From IMG/VR virus record IMGVR_UViG_3300017963_000223: DNA of 64,000 nt; one strand, given 5' to 3'. Of this stretch, positions 10,087-54,813 are shown one piece after another. Source of the stretch: a virus. Taxonomy: Duplodnaviria; Heunggongvirae; Uroviricota; Caudoviricetes. Every line of letters begins with the position of its first letter. Within the stretch, counting starts at the first letter, position 1. The notes under the pieces are model-generated. The model saw nothing but the letters and a program-made list of their open reading frames with translations. It made no database searches and was not told the DNA's origin. The translations under genes and the position numbers were made by a program.

Positions 10087-10242
10087 CAGCGACTTAGCTG
10101 CCCAGCTTGGAAGTCCGCGCCTCTAAGCCATCGGGCCAACCGGGAAGACCGGGCGTACTGTGCGTAGAACCAGGGCACGCATAGTGTAAAATACCTGGGA
10201 GTCGGTTTTCACAAACTTACTCGAAACTCAAGGAGTTCCTCA

Positions 10243-11634
10243 ATGAACTTTTACCCCCTTTGCTACGCGAACGATAACGATGCCCTGATTCCCGAACTGT
10301 GGGCGAATGAGTCTCTCGCGATTCTTGAAGAGAACATGGTGATGGCGAATCTCGTCCACCGTGACTTCTCGCCGCTGGTCGCCAGCTACGGCGACGTGGT
10401 CAATACTCGTCGACCGGGCGAGTTCTCGACTAAGCGTAAGGCGCAGGCCGATAGCGTGGTCAGCCAGAACGCTTCCAGCACGAACGTCCAGGTCCCCTTG
10501 GATCAGCACGTTTACGTGACGTTCACCATCAAGGACGAGGAAGCCAGCCTCTCGTTCAAGGAGTTGATCTCTTACTACATGCAGCCCGCTGCCATGCAGA
10601 TGGCTCGCACGGTGGATCGCATTCTGTGCGGTCAGGTGCATCGCTTCTTCACCAACAACTCCGGCAAACTGGCTGGCATGACGTCTTCCAACGCTAAGGA
10701 TTACATCCTGGAAACCCGCGAAGACATGAATGTCAACAAGGCCTACCAGAACGGTCGAAATCTGGTCATCAGCCCGCAGGCTGAGACCGAGATGTTGAAG
10801 ACCGAATTGTTCATCGCTGCGAACCAGCGTGGAGATGGCGGAACGGCCCTCGAAGAGGCTCGCCTTGGTCGTATCCTTGGCTTCGATACCTTCCTGGATC
10901 AGAACGTGAACTACGTCGCGCTGGCTAGCGCCGACACGATCACGCTGAATCATACGGCAGGTGCTTCGGCTGGTGACACGGGCAACAAGACTTGTACCAC
11001 GGCTTCGGCCAACATCGCCAACGGCGCGTTCGTCTGGTTCACGGGCGACCAACAGCCGCAGGTGGTTTCGGCTCACACCGGTACGGGCCCGATCACAGGT
11101 ATCACCCTGGTCGATCCGTACAAGTATGATGTCTCGGCCAACGCGGTTGGCTATGCCTTCAACGCAGCGGACGCTAGCGGCAATTACGCGGTCGGCTACG
11201 ACAAGGGTATCACGCTTGATGGCATCACGGCCAACAAGCTCCCTGTTGTGGGTCAGTTGCTTGCCACCGGCACGGGTGCGACTCGTAAGACGTACACGAT
11301 CATCGAAGTGGACTCGGTCAACACCACGTCCGCCGTTGTGTGGCTGGACCGTCCTCTTGAGGTCGCTATCACTGACGACGACGAAGTGTTCCCCGGCCCG
11401 CATGGCTCGATGTGCATGGCGTTTCATCGGGATGCTCTCGCCCTCGTCAGCCGCCCCTTGGCTCTGCCAGCCGATTCTCTCGGCGTGCAAGCGGCCGTCG
11501 GCAGCTACAATGACTTGGCGATGCGAGTCGCGATGCAGTACGACATCTCCAGCCAGGGCACGATTGTGACCCTCGACATGCTGTGCGGTGTTGCTCTGCT
11601 CGACGTGAACTTGGGCGCTGCTCTCTACGCTTGA
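10243..11634 (+). CDS. major capsid protein
   Basis: 463-aa ORF after scaffold, strong RBS caaggag, followed by strong hairpin terminator. Confidence 0.65.
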   Translation: MNFYPLCYANDNDALIPELWANESLAILEENMVMANLVHRDFSPLVASYGDVVNTRRPGEFSTKRKAQADSVVSQNASSTNVQVPLDQHVYVTFTIKDEEASLSFKELISYYMQPAAMQMARTVDRILCGQVHRFFTNNSGKLAGMTSSNAKDYILETREDMNVNKAYQNGRNLVISPQAETEMLKTELFIAANQRGDGGTALEEARLGRILGFDTFLDQNVNYVALASADTITLNHTAGASAGDTGNKTCTTASANIANGAFVWFTGDQQPQVVSAHTGTGPITGITLVDPYKYDVSANAVGYAFNAADASGNYAVGYDKGITLDGITANKLPVVGQLLATGTGATRKTYTIIEVDSVNTTSAVVWLDRPLEVAITDDDEVFPGPHGSMCMAFHRDALALVSRPLALPADSLGVQAAVGSYNDLAMRVAMQYDISSQGTIVTLDMLCGVALLDVNLGAALYA

Positions 11635-11668
11635 GCCCAACCGGCTTAGGGCCGGATTCGATAGCGTA

Positions 11669-11699
11669 CCCGGCGGGAGGCATCTCACCTCCCGCCGGG
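11669..11699 (+). terminator. perfect 12-bp stem hairpin (cccggcgggagg/cctcccgccggg) after capsid gene
   Basis: Seen directly in sequence; no long T-tract, so intrinsic terminator assignment moderate. Confidence 0.5.
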
Positions 11700-11703
11700 C
11701 CTT

Positions 11704-11776
11704 GCTAGTGTAGCTCAATTGGCAGAGCCGTTGATTTGTAATCAACAGGTTAAAGGTTCGAGTCCTTTCGCTAGCT
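11704..11776 (+). tRNA. tRNA-Thr (anticodon TGT)
   Basis: Manual cloverleaf: acceptor GCTAGTG/CGCTAGC, D-stem GCTC/GAGC, anticodon stem GTTGA/TCAAC loop TTTGTAA, T-stem AAAGG/CCTTT with TTCGAGT loop. Confidence 0.8.
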
Positions 11777-11816
11777 CTACTGTTTGACAGTATCGGACTT
11801 TCTTTGGAGATTTCAC

Positions 11817-12107
11817 ATGGCATGGGCCGACCGATTTCAAGCCGACGCGATCATTGAGCCTTCGGGCTACAGGAAGGTCACTTCTCTCTCGTCAGCCAAG
11901 GGTGTGCTGATCGGCGAAGGTCGTGTCGCACTTATTCAAGCAATCAATCAAAATGTGCGTTACCGTGATGACGGCGTCGACCCGACCGCCAACACAGGGA
12001 TGGTGCTGTTCGCAGGTCAAAGTATCTGGTACACTGGCGATCTACGCGCCATCCGGTTCATTGAGGAAGCAGTAGGGGCCGAAGTCAACATCCTGACGTA
12101 CAAATGA
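11817..12107 (+). CDS. hypothetical protein (96 aa)
   Basis: ATG 11817 with GGAGA RBS 7 nt upstream; ORF table entry 11784 is upstream extension. Confidence 0.5.
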   Translation: MAWADRFQADAIIEPSGYRKVTSLSSAKGVLIGEGRVALIQAINQNVRYRDDGVDPTANTGMVLFAGQSIWYTGDLRAIRFIEEAVGAEVNILTYK

Positions 12108-12811
12108 TCCCATTCGCAAGTAACATCAGAATCCCGATGGCGCCAAATCTAGGCGGAGTCGCCGCCGGTTTGAAAGAGAAGAGGTTGCTTGCGGCCTCGT
12201 CGTTGGCCTTGGTGCATACTGTTTCGCAAACCGGCAACAGGAATGCTGCTGCTGAAAACACACTGCTTTTGGATCACGCAGCCGTGTGGCATAACAACCA
12301 CGCCGAAGACCCCGGCAGCAGCACGTTGAACTTTGCTCAAGGCGCGACGTTCAACATTGAGAGGCCTAGGTCATGTGAGTCGACGTTGTCTTTCAGTCAG
12401 TATGTTCACGTCATTCTTGAAGGCTATCACGCACCTAGCACAACCCTTGCTCTTGTTGCTGGTGAAACGGTCAACGTAGGGGCTCCTGCATACATCACCA
12501 GCAATAACACGGCAAATCTTGCGTCCGCATCCGATGCCGTCAAGTCCAGAGCGATTGGGCTGATAACACAGGCTGCTTCTGCAAACAGCGCCACAATTGT
12601 TCAGACTGATGGCTCGGTAGAGGTCGCAGATTGGACTTCAATCATTGGCGCCGCCGCTCTCACTCCTGGCACGGTTTACTTTCTGCATACTACTGATGGT
12701 CAGATGAGAGCTACGCCACCGACCGGAGACGGAGAGGTCGTAGTGACCATGGGTGTCGCGGTCACAACAACCAAGTTTGACATCGAAGTCAACGAGGTAG
12801 CTGTTCTATGA
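12104..12811 (+). CDS. hypothetical structural protein, C-terminal domain paralogous to 3025..3489 product
   Basis: ATGA overlap coupling; shared C-terminal motif ...DGEVVVTMGVAVTTTKFDIEV. Confidence 0.55.
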   Translation: MIPFASNIRIPMAPNLGGVAAGLKEKRLLAASSLALVHTVSQTGNRNAAAENTLLLDHAAVWHNNHAEDPGSSTLNFAQGATFNIERPRSCESTLSFSQYVHVILEGYHAPSTTLALVAGETVNVGAPAYITSNNTANLASASDAVKSRAIGLITQAASANSATIVQTDGSVEVADWTSIIGAAALTPGTVYFLHTTDGQMRATPPTGDGEVVVTMGVAVTTTKFDIEVNEVAVL

Positions 12812-33049: not shown

Positions 33050-33777
33050 ATCGGGGCAAAGTATTGGGCAACAAGGGCGTCGAACGCCTCGCTGCGAGGG
33101 GCGTCCAATATGACGAATTTGATCTCCTTAGTTTCATCCTGACAGGGCGGGGCCTCGGGACCGATCGGGACGTCGAAGATTTCGCCACAGGCAACGCACT
33201 CTCGTCCATGGTCCGTCAGCCATGTGAAATCAAAGCCACACTTTGGGCATTCACCGTCTATGACTGCCTCATCCCACTCGAATTCAAGCTCACAAGTGTG
33301 TGTAAATTTGACGTCATCAAACGGGGAGATGTACCATGTTGAGTCTGGCGGATCACCATCGCACTCGGCAGCCCATCCTTCAACGGCCTTTTCGTCCTGC
33401 TTCTCCTCCTTGGCCTCCCGCTTCTTCTTCTCCTCGGCCCAGTGTTTGGCACATCCGGCCCAAATCTCATCGTCGCGAGCGGGCAGTTCGGGGTAGTTGA
33501 GTTCGAGCAGGGCACACATGTTCCACACCGCATGGGCGATGTGCAGACAGCCGGTGTCCGGGTCGTAGACTTCGCCGTTGAAGATGTAGTTCAGGTGGCG
33601 GAACATACTGTTCCAATACTCATCGTCCGGCTTGTTGCCTAGTCGCCAGTTGCCGTCATTGTACTTGATGGCTCCCATCTCTTTCACTCGGGCGATCGCT
33701 TCCGCCATTCTAGGGAAGCTCCGCATGAAGTAAGACATCATGGGCTTGTCGTCATTGAAACGTAAGGCTTCACTCAT
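33037..33777 (-). CDS. phage dNTP pyrophosphohydrolase-like (DUF5664-like) N-terminal domain protein with C-terminal zinc ribbon
   Basis: KYNDGNWRLG...HIAHAVWNMCALLE motif recalled from phage dATP/dGTP pyrophosphohydrolase family; CPKCG...CVACG. Confidence 0.4.
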   Translation of the reverse strand: MSEALRFNDDKPMMSYFMRSFPRMAEAIARVKEMGAIKYNDGNWRLGNKPDDEYWNSMFRHLNYIFNGEVYDPDTGCLHIAHAVWNMCALLELNYPELPARDDEIWAGCAKHWAEEKKKREAKEEKQDEKAVEGWAAECDGDPPDSTWYISPFDDVKFTHTCELEFEWDEAVIDGECPKCGFDFTWLTDHGRECVACGEIFDVPIGPEAPPCQDETKEIKFVILDAPRSEAFDALVAQYFAPMWRP

Positions 33778-36533
33778 GTCAAATCATCCTCTCTTACTAG
33801 GAATCGGCCGTCCCTCACGAACGGCACACTCGGTTTGGTGTTTGGGTCCAACGATAGGTTTCCTATGATCGCTTGGTTGTGATGGCGAGAAGTCCCTAGC
33901 ATAAGCTTCTCAGACACAATCGCGCGTATCGTATGTTGCTTCCATTCACTCTGTTGAAATACTTCCAGCGAAGCTTGAAACGCTTTCACAAACTCAGTGA
34001 AGCGAATTGCCGCACCAGGGATCTTGTAGCAGTGGTCGGCGATGAACTGCTCAAGCTCATCGACGTTGTCGGCGGCAGCATCGTGCTTGCCTTGAGTTTC
34101 TATCACCGGCAGCATCATACGGCCCGTGGCTTCCGGTCTCTCGTAATTGAGGAGTGTATACATGAAGTGGGGTGCCTCTTGCCGTAGGAGTTCAAACAGT
34201 CGATCCTTTGGGATTTCTTCTTCAAGCGCGGGCACGTTCATCGCCGTGATTCGTGTATCGTCCGGCAGCACAGGGAGGGCTCGCCTAGTGTTTGCCAATT
34301 GAACGAAGTGCAAAGTGTTCGTAATGGTTCTTGGCTGTCCATACTTGGCGTGCAAACAGAAAGTCAGACCGGTAGTCCAGTCCTTGATTCGATTGTATGC
34401 TGTCGCACCAGCCTTGGCGATGTTGACTTCATCAATCACCGCCAACACTACACCCTCCAATTCCCCGTTGTAGCCTTGGTCCGAGGTCAGAGCCTTGTCC
34501 GCCCGCTCCATACCGCCCGGAGTCATCAACAGATCAATAGCCTCATAGAAGCTTGACTTCCCACTGTTCTGCGGGCCATACATGAAGAGGTAGGGTAGCT
34601 TGCCGTGTGGGTTTTGTATCATGCTGGCAACCCACGCGGTCAAATAATCACCGCCGGTAGTGATGTTCCAGTCTTTGCACCAAGGCAGGTCAGGGATGTA
34701 GTCGCTCAATTCAACGCCGCAGTGCCCCATCACACGATCCCACGTTGGGTGTATCGGGGATTCGTCTTCCCCCAATTCTACAGGAGCGTAGACAAGCTGG
34801 GTTGCCTTCCTGTTCCATTGGCGCCCTCCTGGGTACTCGGGCTGAAATGGCTCGTTGATGAGCGACCACGCTTTGTAAACCGCGCCGCCTAGTATCGGAG
34901 CGGGCTTGTTGAATCCCTCTTTCGCGAGGAACGAACTAATGTTGTCGCGCGGGTGGTTTATCCACCTATTGTCATGGTCCTTCATTACCCACGAGTCAAA
35001 CTGAGCCATGCCTTCGGACTCCGTCTTCAAGGCTCGAATCTTCTCGTCAAGTTCAGACCAGATCGCCTCCTCTTTCACTTCATTGTCAGATGTTTCGATC
35101 GCGCCATCTAGCCAGCGTTCCCAGCCCTTTGCGGTCTTGACAAACCGAGGGAACTCAGGGCGTCTATCTCCCCGTTTCTTCTCGATCACCATAACTACCT
35201 TACCACGATCGTTGACGTATAGCGACAACCCGCGATCGACAGCCTTCTCCGGCACAGGTACGTTGGACTTGAGAATCTTCAGCGCCTCTTTCAGGTCTTC
35301 AACTGTTTCAAAGAGGAAGCCCTGTTTCTCTTCTGGGCCTTCATATCCATTGCACGCCAGACAGATCTGACGCAGGGTGGAGGGGAAGTTGAGGGTGGTG
35401 TGCGTCCACTTGCCCTGCTGATCCCACATCGGGTGCTCGTCCGTCCCCTCGCCAAACCGGTACACGTCCCACGCCCCATCGGGCTTTGGTCGCATGAAAC
35501 AGTTGGGCTTGCCAGGATCGCTGTCCAGCGAATTGGTATCGAACAGTCCTTTCATCGGGTGGCCCCGCTCGGCCCAGTCGTCGAACACGGCCTTGATACC
35601 TGCGGTGTGTCCCTGCCACAAGTGGTGGTCGGACACCCACAAGCTGGTGTGACCGGTGGACTCAAGGTCTTCCAGAACTTTCAGGTGCTGCTCATCGAGC
35701 GGCACCTTGGCGACGGCCTGGGTCATCTCATCAAGAACGTCTTCGTCGCCTGATGGTGTTCCGTCGGCGGTCCATCCTTGGACTCGCACTCGGGCTCTGC
35801 TGCCGGAGACAACTTCGAGATTGTCTCGCCAGTTGGGCGGGACATGCGCGGCAGTCAGAATTTGTGTCGCTGGTTTGACTTGGGCATAGCCTTGGTTCTC
35901 GGCTGTGGCGTTCTCATGGTGAATCCACATCACGCCTCCGCACACATCAACACTCGCTTCAACGTCGAGTCCGGTGTGCTTGGCGATGAGCGGGATGAAC
36001 GCCCGCGCGATCGCGGCATGCTCAGTATGGTTCACGGTAACTGGAGCGTCGTTCTCATCGAACCAGATATAGATGTGACGACCCGCACCGCGAGTCGAGC
36101 GGATGACTTCGAGCCAGGGCACGTCGATCTTGTCCAGCTTGGCGAGTTCCTCATCGGAGACGCCGACGCCTTTCGCGTGCCCTATAATACTGTCGAAGTC
36201 GTAACCCAGGCCGATAGTCTTCTGGTTCTTCCAGTCCCACCATGTTGTGCCAATGCACTTCATGCGGGTCTCGACTATATAGGGGATGGGCGGGTCCGAA
36301 TAGTTGGCATTTCCTGCTGAGTCATAAGGCCAGCGGTGGGAGCCGAAGACCTCCCCATCCTGCTCAAACTTGCCATTGTCAAGCTTTACGCCAGCACTTC
36401 GACACATGATCTGTGTCTCAAACCGACCTGGGTCGGCGCCCCACCGCCCTATAAGCTCTGGATGGTTATGCTGCTTTGACAGCACGTTGTTGTAGAAGGC
36501 CTTGTAGGCCTCGGTTGTGCGTGTATTACGCAT
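33774..36533 (-). CDS. DNA primase / SF3 helicase (D5/P4-type primase-helicase)
   Basis: Walker A YGPQNSGKSSF, Walker B VLAVIDEV; start ATG at 36533 (MRNTRTTEAYK) with GGAG RBS; the table ORF to 36800 is an upstream in-frame extension. Confidence 0.75.
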   Translation of the reverse strand: MRNTRTTEAYKAFYNNVLSKQHNHPELIGRWGADPGRFETQIMCRSAGVKLDNGKFEQDGEVFGSHRWPYDSAGNANYSDPPIPYIVETRMKCIGTTWWDWKNQKTIGLGYDFDSIIGHAKGVGVSDEELAKLDKIDVPWLEVIRSTRGAGRHIYIWFDENDAPVTVNHTEHAAIARAFIPLIAKHTGLDVEASVDVCGGVMWIHHENATAENQGYAQVKPATQILTAAHVPPNWRDNLEVVSGSRARVRVQGWTADGTPSGDEDVLDEMTQAVAKVPLDEQHLKVLEDLESTGHTSLWVSDHHLWQGHTAGIKAVFDDWAERGHPMKGLFDTNSLDSDPGKPNCFMRPKPDGAWDVYRFGEGTDEHPMWDQQGKWTHTTLNFPSTLRQICLACNGYEGPEEKQGFLFETVEDLKEALKILKSNVPVPEKAVDRGLSLYVNDRGKVVMVIEKKRGDRRPEFPRFVKTAKGWERWLDGAIETSDNEVKEEAIWSELDEKIRALKTESEGMAQFDSWVMKDHDNRWINHPRDNISSFLAKEGFNKPAPILGGAVYKAWSLINEPFQPEYPGGRQWNRKATQLVYAPVELGEDESPIHPTWDRVMGHCGVELSDYIPDLPWCKDWNITTGGDYLTAWVASMIQNPHGKLPYLFMYGPQNSGKSSFYEAIDLLMTPGGMERADKALTSDQGYNGELEGVVLAVIDEVNIAKAGATAYNRIKDWTTGLTFCLHAKYGQPRTITNTLHFVQLANTRRALPVLPDDTRITAMNVPALEEEIPKDRLFELLRQEAPHFMYTLLNYERPEATGRMMLPVIETQGKHDAAADNVDELEQFIADHCYKIPGAAIRFTEFVKAFQASLEVFQQSEWKQHTIRAIVSEKLMLGTSRHHNQAIIGNLSLDPNTKPSVPFVRDGRFLVREDDLT

Positions 36534-36559
36534 GTCGTCTCCATTACGATTCTCGAAGT

Positions 36560-37045
36560 GTCTACCTATACTGTATGCAGATTCAATAATTCGACAACCC
36601 TGAAAATCTGTCTTGTGATGATTTTCTGCTGTCTCACCACCCACCGGAGGGAGCGGAATGGCGCCGGAGTTCTTGCGTGGCCGCCCTTCCAGTAGGTGGG
36701 CGGGTGGGAACCTACTTTGTGGTTTGGCTCTCCCTCGCTTTGCCTGTAACACCCCATTAGAGGGAGCGGAACGGCGCGCGCCATTCCGCTCCCTCCGCAT
36801 GGGGGTGTGTAACGCAAGTCCTTGGCGCCGAAAGACTTATGAAGACCTTTTCAAGAGCGCCGGAACCGGAGTCACAAAAGAAGTCATCCGCGAATTTGTG
36901 CAAGTTGCACAAATCACACTAGAAGAGTCTTTTGGAACTCCGCATTCCGGCGCCCGCATTAGCAGTTGGAAAATCACCTGAAAATTCGACTTTTTGTCGA
37001 TTTGATGGTTGTCGGAAGGCCAGATCTGCATACAGTATAGGTAGA
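36560..37045. promoter_or_regulatory. bidirectional control region / candidate replication origin bounded by 21-bp inverted repeat ctacctatactgtatgcagat and containing GAGGGAGCGGAA iterons and hairpins
   Basis: IR copies at 36562-36582 and 37025-37045 (reverse complement); both sit 5' of divergent genes as TTGTCG-N17-ACAGTATAG; centre has 3 copies of GAGGGAGCGGAA(T/C)GGCGC (36648, 36752, inverted 36779-36795) and AGTAGGT/ACCTACT hairpin. Confidence 0.5.
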
Positions 37046-37048
37046 GCA

Positions 37049-37984
37049 ATGAACGATACCCAAAAGGAAATCCCGATCAAGCAGATCATGCGACCGAAGC
37101 ACCCAATCCGGGCTCTTCGTCGCAACGCGCCGGAATACATCGAGATGCTGGAGTCGATTCGGAAAGACGGCGTCCTTCAGCCGATCCTCGTGCGACCGTG
37201 CGACCCCAGCACGGGCTTTCAGTACGAGGTGGTCGAAGGCTGGCATCGTTATGAGACCTCAAAGGAGTGTGGCTTGGAAACGATCCCGGCCCTTGTGAAA
37301 GACTTGACAGATGACGAAGTGCTTGTCATACAATTGAAATGCAACGCCATTCGTCCGGTGACCCATACGTTTGAGTATGCTCGTCGGCTGAAGCTTCTTA
37401 TGGATAAGGGCTTGACGATTGTTCAACTCTCACAACTAGTTGACAAGAGCGTTCAATGGGTCAGGGATCAACTTCAACTCAACCGATTATGTGAGGAAGC
37501 CAGAGCGCCCATCGAGCAGGGCGAGATAAGAATGCAGTCGGCTCTTGCTTTAGCAAACTTGCCGCAAGATTTGCAGCCTAAGTTTGTTGATGACGCGATA
37601 GCCTTGAAGGCAAAGGACTTTGTCGATCGCGCCGAGTACGCTTTGCGTGATTTCAAGTCTTGCCTTCAACGAGAGCACGAAGCAGATAAGTTAGCTGGGG
37701 TCGTGAAACCCCGCCTGCAAGCCGTCAACATACTGAAACGTGAGACGGTTAAGCCTAAGAACGCCAAACGTGTCCTGAAGGCCGCAGGGGCGAAGACAGC
37801 ACTAGACGGCTGGCGTGCGTGTCTCGCTTGGGTGTTTTCTATTGATCCCATCTCAGTCAAGAACAGAGTAGCCGGAAATAAGGAGGGCCGCGAGGGCGTA
37901 ATAGCAAATCAACAAGAGTACAGAGAACTGAATCGATCGCTGATTGAACAATTTGTGAAACCTCATTTGAAAACTGGAGACTAA
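37049..37984 (+). CDS. ParB-like nuclease domain protein
   Basis: ParB N-terminal domain pattern IPIKQI..P...R.......IEMLESIRKDGVLQPILVRP....FQYEVVEGWHRYE; ATG immediately after control-region motif with no RBS (likely leaderless). Confidence 0.6.
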   Translation: MNDTQKEIPIKQIMRPKHPIRALRRNAPEYIEMLESIRKDGVLQPILVRPCDPSTGFQYEVVEGWHRYETSKECGLETIPALVKDLTDDEVLVIQLKCNAIRPVTHTFEYARRLKLLMDKGLTIVQLSQLVDKSVQWVRDQLQLNRLCEEARAPIEQGEIRMQSALALANLPQDLQPKFVDDAIALKAKDFVDRAEYALRDFKSCLQREHEADKLAGVVKPRLQAVNILKRETVKPKNAKRVLKAAGAKTALDGWRACLAWVFSIDPISVKNRVAGNKEGREGVIANQQEYRELNRSLIEQFVKPHLKTGD

Positions 37985-37988
37985 GACT

Positions 37989-38684
37989 ATGTCGAATGAA
38001 CTCGTACCTTTCAAAGTCAACCTTCCTGCCGTCACCAAAGAGCAACTGAACGCCCTTGACGAGGTCGCAAAGGGCTCGGAATTCCTTCCGCGTATCCAGC
38101 TTATCACCAAAGGTAAGTACGTGGACACCGGCAAGATCAAGCCCGGCCGCTGGGGCGTCCCCTTGCCAGGAGGAGATGACATCGACGACCTCGGGGAGTC
38201 GATTGACGTTGTGCCGTGGGCGGTTCGCCCGAAGGCGTTGGATGTGGCCGACAAGGACGCTATCGTATCGGTCTATGAAACAAGTGACCCCGAGTTTCAG
38301 CGGATCAAGAACGCTCCGAAGAACACGGGCTGCATGTGGGGCCCCTCCTTCCTCGTCCTTGAACGCAGCACCGGCAAGTTGTACGAACTCTACTTCGGCA
38401 ACAAGTCCGGTCGACAGGAAGCTGGCAAGCTGAAGCCATTCTTGCCCACCGAGGAGAACGGCGGCCAAGCGAGTCCTGCAACGCTGAACATCCGTTACGT
38501 GAAGATGCCGGAGTACGGCTGGCATGTTCCCGTTGTAACGAAGTGCTCGGAGCCCTTCGATCCGAAGGCCGTACAGGTCACGCCTGATCAATTGATCGAA
38601 GAGCGTGTGAAGTTCCTCAACCCTGAGAAGGGCGCGGAGAAGGTCTCCGAAGAGGAGCAAACCACGCAGGAGCGCGCTCGCTAG
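37989..38684 (+). CDS. hypothetical protein (231 aa)
   Basis: ORF followed by hairpin terminator. Confidence 0.5.
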   Translation: MSNELVPFKVNLPAVTKEQLNALDEVAKGSEFLPRIQLITKGKYVDTGKIKPGRWGVPLPGGDDIDDLGESIDVVPWAVRPKALDVADKDAIVSVYETSDPEFQRIKNAPKNTGCMWGPSFLVLERSTGKLYELYFGNKSGRQEAGKLKPFLPTEENGGQASPATLNIRYVKMPEYGWHVPVVTKCSEPFDPKAVQVTPDQLIEERVKFLNPEKGAEKVSEEEQTTQERAR

Positions 38685-54721: not shown

Positions 54722-54794
54722 TGTACAGTAGCTCAATGGGTAGAGCACCTGACTGTTAATCAGGTGGTTGCTGGTTCAAGTCCAGCCTGTACAG
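54722..54794 (+). tRNA. tRNA-Asn (anticodon GTT)
   Basis: Acceptor TGTACAG/CTGTACA, D-stem GCTC/GAGC, anticodon stem CCTGA/TCAGG loop CTGTTAA, T-stem GCTGG/CCAGC loop TTCAAGT. Confidence 0.8.
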
Positions 54795-54813
54795 CTAACC
54801 CTGGAGACCTGAG

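Follow-up and report, generated by a model that had tools for sequence, protein, structure and literature searches.

What function is served by the gap of about 0.5 kb (positions 36534-37048) that separates a leftward gene for a primase-helicase from a rightward gene for a ParB-type protein in a 64,000-nt stretch of an uncultured tailed phage (IMG/VR record IMGVR_UViG_3300017963_000223; the whole stretch is hereafter called the window)? The origins of uncultured phages are almost never identified, and an earlier note, made from the letters of this DNA, had suggested a replication origin with twin promoters and operators or, alternatively, a structured non-coding RNA (ncRNA). We compared the gap with its counterparts retrieved from about 24 distinct metagenomic loci (labelled L001, L002 and so on; hereafter the relatives), in which the primase identity ranges from 36 to 87%. 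With slightly more than even confidence, we lean towards a replication origin combined with an early divergent control and promoter region. The support for the origin proposed in the earlier note is comparative, and an origin is the best interpretation available. The gap would then be a variant of known origin types and not a new kind of element, closest to the stem-loop origin of plasmid pRN1 combined with iterons of the P4 type.

The repeated-word core and its right stem-loop

With regard to position, an origin is favoured by the placement of the gap between divergent replication operons in constant synteny. The gene order was the same in all seven loci with gene calls (L093-L099), namely a 231-aa protein, ParB, the gap, the primase-helicase, a MazZ-like enzyme and an RNase T-type exonuclease, with gap lengths of 407-873 nt. 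Across the approximately 24 relatives, both the position and the architecture of the gap are kept despite a barely alignable core sequence. DNA-level alignment of the gap was possible only in the closest clade (L070, L001, L002 and L075), and elsewhere only short patches could be aligned.

The core consists of about 440 bp (441 nt) of genome-specific repeated words in both orientations (the coordinates of the features are collected in Table 1). The most widely conserved core feature found was the right stem-loop of about 100 nt, which had not been singled out in the earlier note. Its centre holds the palindrome ATTTGTGCAA-G-TTGCACAAAT (36894-36914), the arms of which read AAATCCTTG/CAAGGATTT in L002. 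The right module of 14 relatives folds in each case into a hairpin of 92-129 nt, and most relatives, distant ones included, retain a span of about 76-109 bp. A covariance model built from the right hairpins of eight relatives found the hairpin at the expected place in six relatives outside the model and in none of about 20 unrelated control loci. In the structure-aware alignment, 21 of the 30 pairs occur as two Watson-Crick types in which both partners have been exchanged. The covariance-model alignment was needed here, as the consensus obtained with MAFFT alone was poor and recovered the outer stem only. We regard the right stem-loop as a candidate core origin.

The earlier note had pointed to GAGGGAGCGGAA iterons. 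These repeats exist, but they are only part of a wider word system, in which CGGAR occurs 11 times in the 441 bp of the core, the maximum density of this word in the 64-kb window. The stem words are genome-specific: CCGGAR in the window, L074, L084 and L085, GACGGCA in L087, GCGGAG in L083 and L090, GGGGAG in L076, L082 and L086, and TTGGAT in L092. Equivalent words are present in every relative; they are spaced about 11 nt apart in several of them and are often preceded by a family-wide CCACCC motif. Two properties of iteron-type origins are accordingly found at this locus, the first being clustered repeated words in non-coding DNA (three copies of an 18-mer plus the 11 CGGAR words) and the second a cognate initiator gene adjoining the repeats, here encoding an archaeo-eukaryotic-type (AEP) primase joined to a superfamily 3 (SF3) helicase.

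In the left domain, the three central copies described before, two direct and one inverted, could be recovered: GAGGGAGCGGAAYGGCGC occurs at 36647 (+), 36760 (+) and 36778 (-), with no fourth copy in the window at up to three mismatches (0.17 expected). Copies 1 and 3 pair over 30 nt at 87% and close the left domain (36645-36664 with 36778-36797, extended to 30 nt). The central palindrome, for which a 12-bp stem had been claimed, is made up of copies 2 and 3; its arms are in fact 18 nt long with one mismatch and zero spacer. A second, nested inverted pair had also been reported, and this holds for CGACAACC/GGTTGTCG, whereas CCTGAAAAT was identified by the repeat finder as a direct repeat. Relatives carry a perfect inverted repeat of 13-30 bp in the left domain, spanning 132-176 bp and starting about 100 nt from the primase ATG, with equivalent arms at matching offset in L001, L002, L070, L074, L082, L086, L087, L094 and L096. 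Moreover, L070 shows a compensatory change relative to L001 at repeats A and A' (CCCACC/GGTGGG to CCCGCC/GGCGGG).

The AGTAGGT/ACCTACT hairpin was likewise present as reported. The G-tract motif in its loop, GGGCGGGTGGG, is found at matching offset and on the same strand in L001, L002, L070, L074 and L081, and the version in L002 has four G3 tracts (GGGCGGGCGGGTGGG). The motif could form a plus-strand quadruplex. This reading was set aside, since most of the seven relatives in which the motif is conserved have three G-tracts only.

Two groups of relatives differ in their gaps. In L072 and L097 (99.8% identical to each other) the gap is enlarged to about 750-870 nt with repeated left-domain modules visible, which suggests that the core can grow by tandem duplication. 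In L003/L079 (42% identity; gap 650 nt upstream of the primase) the words read (T/C)ATCCAC, which corresponds to the DnaA-box core, and 7 of the 11 copies in the 14.7-kb L003 locus fall in the gap. DnaA boxes were nevertheless rejected for L003, as none of these clustered ATCCAC words matches the full TTWTNCACA consensus.

As judged by conservation, the gap is non-coding. A 107-aa open reading frame (ORF) exists at 36658-36981 (plus), and the earlier note had held that its expression and conservation would speak against a control region; it is not conserved as coding sequence. This ORF, an 83-aa and a 70-aa ORF on the minus strand, and an 89-aa extension of the primase frame show 46-61% amino acid identity where the DNA is 70-81% identical. 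All core frames fade in distant relatives, and no core reading frame is conserved; the flanking proteins hold 42-89% identity. No stop codon interrupts the primase frame over the 89 codons that precede its true start, back to 36800 (-), which makes an ORF of 1008 aa. Homologue matches begin at the ATG at 36533, and the extension to 36800 is not conserved. The called ParB of L093 (387 aa) seems to run into the gap as well. An open frame through the gap is an annotation trap for automatic gene callers, which inflates the primase to 1008 aa.

Table 1. Features of the gap and of its two flanking genes, in order of position in the window (strand as +, - or, where none applies, a dot)
Feature	Position	Strand	Description
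Primase-helicase gene	33774-36533	-	919 aa; N-terminal AEP-fold primase and D5/NrS-1-type SF3 helicase; start at ATG 36533
Putative 5' leader of primase mRNA	36534-36560	-	Conserved TAGACACTTCGAGA, then Shine-Dalgarno GGAGA (complement of 36538-36542) 4 nt ahead of ATG
Left promoter-like arm, toward primase	36561-36597	-	22-bp copy; -10-like TACAGT (complement of 36570-36575); -35-like TTGTCG (complement of 36592-36597)
Small palindrome GAAAATC-N11-GATTTTC	36602-36626	.	Just inside left arm; from sequence and minimum free energy (MFE) fold
Repeat A (CACCACCCACCGGAGGGAGCGGAATGGCGC)	36635-36664	+	Left arm of inverted repeat of about 170-bp span closing left domain
AGTAGGT/ACCTACT hairpin	36691-36716	+	Arms 36691-36697 and 36710-36716; loop is G-tract motif GGGCGGGTGGG (36698-36708)
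Repeat B (GAGGGAGCGGAACGGCGC)	36760-36777	+	Direct copy of A; with start of A' makes 36-bp palindrome, zero spacer
Repeat A'	36778-36807	-	Inverted copy; complementary to A over 30 nt, to B over 18 nt
Middle hairpin AAGTC...GACTT	36816-36838	.	Bears family-wide TAAGTCC-like motif; from sequence, folds and relatives
Right stem-loop, about 100 nt	36856-36954	.	Tandem words CCGGAACCGGAG (36860-36871) opposite CTCCGCATTCCGG (36938-36950); centre more A+T-rich
Small palindrome AAATTCGAC-N5-GTCGATTT	36982-37003	.	Adjoins right arm; from sequence, MFE fold and alignment
Right promoter-like arm, toward parB	37009-37045	+	-35-like TTGTCG 37009-37014; -10-like TACAGT 37031-37036; 22-bp copy 37024-37045, ends TAGA
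ParB/Spo0J/Noc-type gene	37049-37984	+	311 aa; N-terminal ParB domain and helix-turn-helix (HTH); ATG 3 nt past right arm

Outward-facing arms and a model for initiation

The outer inverted repeat, noted before as 21 bp at 36562 and 37025, proved to be one base longer: a perfect 22-bp repeat, TCTACCTATACTGTATGCAGAT, at 36561-36582 and 37024-37045. The two copies stand 485 bp apart and are the only ones in the 64 kb at up to three mismatches; none was obtained in 100 shuffles. The shared context ascribed to them, TTGTCG-N17-ACAGTATAG, is also real, with TTGTCG at 37009-37014 and its complement CGACAA at 36592-36597 each lying 17 nt from ACAGTATAG, and the layout can be read as TTGTCG-N16-TACAGT on either side. 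The primase-helicase gene begins 27 nt from the left arm, and this 27-nt leader contains a GGAG motif that is conserved among relatives. On the opposite side, most relatives have the parB ATG 3-6 nt past TAGAn, without a Shine-Dalgarno sequence (in the window 37042-37051), so that the parB mRNA would be nearly leaderless in most relatives.

Twin arms were found in 21 relatives, some at only 36-42% primase identity, as an inverted repeat that abuts both genes and measures from 9 to more than 40 bp. Read outward, they share a -35-like motif, identical between the two arms of a given genome, which is followed after about 16-18 nt by TACAAT or TACAGT (or a CTATAG variant) and after a further 5-6 nt by TAGA(C/G). 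In many relatives, the hexamer of the TACAAT/TACAGT type with its TAGA stands at a constant distance from each of the two start codons. Moreover, the arms co-vary within a genome, as in L002, where TTGTCG is changed to TTGCCG and ACTGTA to ATTGTA on both sides. The similarity between the arms ends at TAGA on the outside and reaches the -35-like motif on the inside, and it therefore has the limits of the footprint of two outward promoters. From this comparative evidence, that is, arms which every relative checked has next to both start codons and which co-vary per genome, we regard the two arms as putative outward promoters, as the earlier note had it, although the hexamers are weak by the Escherichia coli consensus. 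Promoters for a T7-like phage RNA polymerase were considered and rejected: no RNA polymerase gene was found in scans of the window ORFs, the 885-aa ORF being a family A DNA polymerase, and good copies of the arm motif number only two.

Small palindromes accompany both arms. GAAAAT-type words recur at both gap edges in relatives, as read by eye, and the palindrome at 36982-37003 appears as TCGGCA/TGCCGA in relatives, with both sides altered. Since the arms are near-identical and have these GAAAAT-type small palindromes beside them, one regulator for both operons is probable. An extra ORF of about 100 aa lies between the right arm and parB in L002 (4801-5109) and in L070 (about 520-830 nt upstream of the primase ATG); L070 retains a second arm copy and part of the 5' end of parB, which looks like the insertion of a gene through promoter duplication.

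These elements could act together as follows. Host RNA polymerase would fire outward from both arms, giving rightward a nearly leaderless parB-operon mRNA and leftward a primase-helicase operon mRNA with a Shine-Dalgarno sequence. The diverging polymerases would under-wind the DNA between the arms, which would favour opening or extrusion of the palindromic core. The AEP-primase/SF3-helicase might then recognise the word arrays, assemble head to head over the right stem-loop, melt its more A+T-rich centre and prime synthesis. A single regulator, for which ParB or a small repressor are candidates, would control both operons together.

The nearest known counterpart of such an element is the origin of the Sulfolobus plasmid pRN1, a stem-loop of about 100 nt whose structure is conserved and whose sequence is not, and whose integrity is required for replication; the pRN1 protein ORF904 combines an AEP primase and an SF3 helicase (PMC4234260). 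Similar stem-loops have been proposed for the Bordetella phages BIP-1/BPP-1, and the pRN1 authors proposed hexamer assembly at the stem-loop and suspected a requirement for negative supercoiling (PMC4234260). The gap studied here shares with pRN1 the AEP plus SF3 replication protein and a stem-loop of about 100 nt by its gene in which the sequence drifts and the pairing is kept. The pRN1 stem-loop, however, sits downstream of the rep gene, and specific Rep binding was not detected there (PMC4234260). Because of the upstream position and the repeated words (pRN1 being downstream and without iterons), we have not filed the present element as a member of the pRN1 type, although it would act in a similar manner.

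The repeated words recall the P4 ori and the RSF1010 iterons. The ori and crr sites of the satellite phage P4 are bound by its alpha primase-helicase (also summarised in PMC4234260). P4 resembles the present system in having one primase plus SF3-helicase initiator and an origin of short direct and inverted words near its gene; it differs in that the alpha primase is of the bacterial Toprim type and not AEP, and in that ori and crr are two separated sites. To our knowledge, neither a long stem-loop architecture nor twin promoters have been described for P4. The oriV of RSF1010 has iterons and the ssiA/ssiB hairpins on opposite strands (PMC4234260). Unlike the gap, RSF1010 uses three separate proteins (RepA, RepB' and RepC) and tandem 20-mer iterons, without divergent twin promoters. 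The right hairpin also follows the same logic as the core origins of polyomaviruses and papillomaviruses. In these origins, inverted arrays of short words (GAGGC in SV40) surround a centre that can be melted, and an SF3 helicase is assembled there head to head. The viruses in question are eukaryotic, their origin-binding domain is different, and nothing indicates that the DNA elements are homologous.

The gap gives a large family a sharply delimited candidate origin of about 0.5 kb, which is built to a conserved plan and of which about two dozen variant sequences occur in nature, and with it a natural experiment in start-site recognition by AEP/SF3 replicases. If the gap is an origin, it would make testable whether repeated words or a stem-loop direct the AEP-primase/SF3-helicase to its start site (left open by the pRN1 work), whether divergent transcription aids origin opening, and how relatives exchange their word specificity.

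DNA repeats, RNA or a ParB platform

The core might instead be a large structured ncRNA, or a sense/antisense pair like ColE1 RNA I/RNA II, that controls replication or the flanking operons. Its fold is exceptionally stable, far beyond that of shuffled sequences on both strands (441 nt; z = -7.3 for the plus and -9.3 for the minus strand), and the cores of all relatives checked fold comparably well. The domain layout is conserved, both-side changes keep pairs even in hairpins outside the words, and the loop-like motifs TAAGTCC, GGGCGGGTGGG and CTAGRGG are conserved. The left arm also holds an inward-facing TTACGA-N17-TATACT.

The composition of the helices was used to distinguish between constraint on DNA and on RNA. 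In 17 relatives, the long helices contained 1246 Watson-Crick pairs against 8 G·T, 20 A·C and 36 other mismatches, and seven further loci gave 560 Watson-Crick pairs with 3 G·T, 6 A·C and 12 others, so that 1806 Watson-Crick positions in all stand against isolated mismatches numbering 11 G·T, 26 A·C and 48 others. The right hairpin showed 26 G·T and 27 A·C mismatches, which together are modestly above the 41 others; such equal numbers are expected from transitions on either arm of a duplex repeat. A one-strand RNA fold should tolerate G·U and avoid A·C, and the test for such strand-specific pairing came out against RNA. We know of no structured RNA with perfect Watson-Crick helices of this kind, in which wobble-type mismatches are rare and uninterrupted runs reach 30 bp. 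The consensus folds were equally good on both strands. This lack of a favoured strand would be explained by a sense/antisense pair. Strand assignment by comparison of fold energies was not informative, as it tracked G+T content and not function.

It is also evident that in most relatives the direct repeats reach roughly half the abundance of the inverted ones or exceed it. RNA folding requires neither direct repeats nor a word phasing of about 11 nt, and tandem arrays are equally unnecessary for it. The Rfam search that the earlier note had recommended gave zero matches at E values up to 10 over 36000-37600. In the core, a consensus scan found neither promoter nor terminator, although the promoter type of the host may differ from the consensus, and the end of the arm similarity at TAGA fits outward and not inward promoters. 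Taken together, the helix composition, the absence of strand bias and the direct repeats fit repeats maintained at the DNA level rather than a one-strand RNA. The ncRNA alternative of the earlier note is disfavoured accordingly, and an RNA function of the core seems unlikely. Less likely again is its stronger form, in which the core gives rise to a large structured RNA of a new family, perhaps to a both-strand sense/antisense pair, that primes or throttles replication by the AEP-primase/SF3-helicase. If this were true, the DNA repeats would be the footprint of an RNA in a widespread lineage of uncultured sediment phages.

Another possibility is that the repeats form a binding platform for the ParB-type protein, either a parS-like cluster or a KorB-like operator that silences or coordinates both operons, and not an origin. 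ParB-family proteins bind palindromes, and their operators include the KorB OB sites on plasmid RK2 and chromosomal parS. As with these operators, a ParB-type HTH protein, here a canonical one of the ParB/Spo0J/Noc type with KorB as a weak match in the Protein Data Bank (PDB 8qa8), is encoded beside palindromes that overlap divergent promoters. The GAAAAT-type words and small palindromes stand beside both -35-like elements and are the motif that is more sequence-conserved across the family, and the two identical arms suggest shared regulation. On the other hand, no canonical parS was found in or near the gap (the sole match in the window at up to three mismatches, at 12454, is at chance level), and no ParA-type match was obtained among the genes neighbouring parB, where the 231-aa neighbour matches no family. 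The core words differ completely among relatives while ParB residues 1-100 stay 42-70% identical. Furthermore, the repeats are long, genome-specific and nested, and inverted repeats spanning 100-170 bp are atypical of parS. We therefore hold a platform in place of an origin to be improbable, although the two readings are compatible and both functions could share the gap.

Several observations weigh against the origin combined with a divergent promoter region that we prefer. The gap lacks a strongly A+T-rich unwinding element, its lowest G+C content being 0.34-0.40 (dips of 0.34-0.38 at 36550-36625 and of 0.40 at 36875-36925) against 0.53 for the window, and GC skew shows no origin signal in the window. 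The promoter scan reported no site at the arms: TTGTCG-N16-TACAGT fits 8 of the 12 positions of the E. coli sigma-70 consensus, which is below the scan threshold, though this consensus may not be that of the host. Unlike in pRN1, the stem-loop is upstream of the primase-helicase gene, lies in a divergent promoter gap and is made of repeated words. Several small hairpins outside the words, namely the tip palindrome, the middle hairpin and TCGAC/GTCGA against TCGGCA/TGCCGA, are kept by both-side changes, and hairpin formation itself therefore seems to matter, which speaks against a reading as protein sites alone. This conservation points to single-strand folding, which fits extruded or unwound origin DNA and RNA equally, a sense/antisense pair included. 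In addition, the excess of A·C over G·T (26 to 11) in the alignment-free count is a weak hint in favour of the minus strand.

That the gap is a miniature inverted-repeat transposable element (MITE), or a segment invertible via the 22-bp repeat, is very improbable: perfect 22-bp terminal inverted repeats 485 bp apart around a highly structured interior would suit it, but the element is single-copy in the window, is fixed at one locus in all of the approximately 24 relatives, where the arms have diverged in step with the genome and adjoin both start codons without exception, has no recombinase or transposase found nearby, and gave no match in phage or plasmid collections. The remaining probability is reserved for functions outside those considered.

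Flanking genes and further observations

The window has the gene set of a tailed phage, including a terminase, a tape-measure protein, a family A DNA polymerase, a ligase and three tRNA genes. The identities assigned earlier to the two divergent genes flanking the gap were borne out. The leftward gene (33774-36533) carries DUF5906, a D5/NrS-1-type SF3 helicase domain (PMC9611036), and its product is an AEP primase fused to an SF3 helicase; structure modelling covered residues 1-440. The rightward gene (37049-37984) encodes a canonical ParB/Spo0J/Noc-type protein, as judged by Pfam matches to ParB_N and HTH_ParB, a TIGR00180 score over its cutoff, and PDB sequence matches to Spo0J, ParB and Noc with E values from 2e-20 to 1e-9.

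At least 147 metagenomic homologues of the primase-helicase were found, at 36-86% identity. Zero matches were obtained with the region against phage and plasmid collections by blastn, with the primase against the phage record collection INPHARED by tblastn, and with ParB in a viral-contig scan, and a scan of genome contigs gave zero relatives. A 15-mer DNA scan returned 66 matches, only two of which are known relatives; the others look like chance. Several primase-helicase homologues (among P0002, P0003, P0007, P0020, others and L075) are about 1240 aa long with LAGLIDADG/intein Pfam matches (PF14528 and PF14890), which suggests that inteins are inserted in the helicase part of these proteins.

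With regard to the neighbours, the protein of about 231 aa (37989-38684, +) is always located 3' of parB (227-243 aa in L093-L099). It has no match in Pfam, PHROGs or NCBIfam, and is a conserved partner of ParB without a family match. Directly after the primase-helicase gene lies that of a MazZ-like dATP/dGTP diphosphohydrolase (PF18909; 33037-33777, -), which is also present in all seven loci with gene calls. A Z-genome (2-aminoadenine) context was considered in view of this MazZ-like gene; it is not indicated, because no PurZ-like gene was seen among the ORFs scanned, a scan that was not exhaustive. The three phage tRNA genes lie at 465-539, 11704-11777 and 54722-54795 (Pro-TGG, Thr-TGT and Asn-GTT), and that for tRNA-Thr sits within a long opposite-strand pair of overlapping ORFs (10240-11823).

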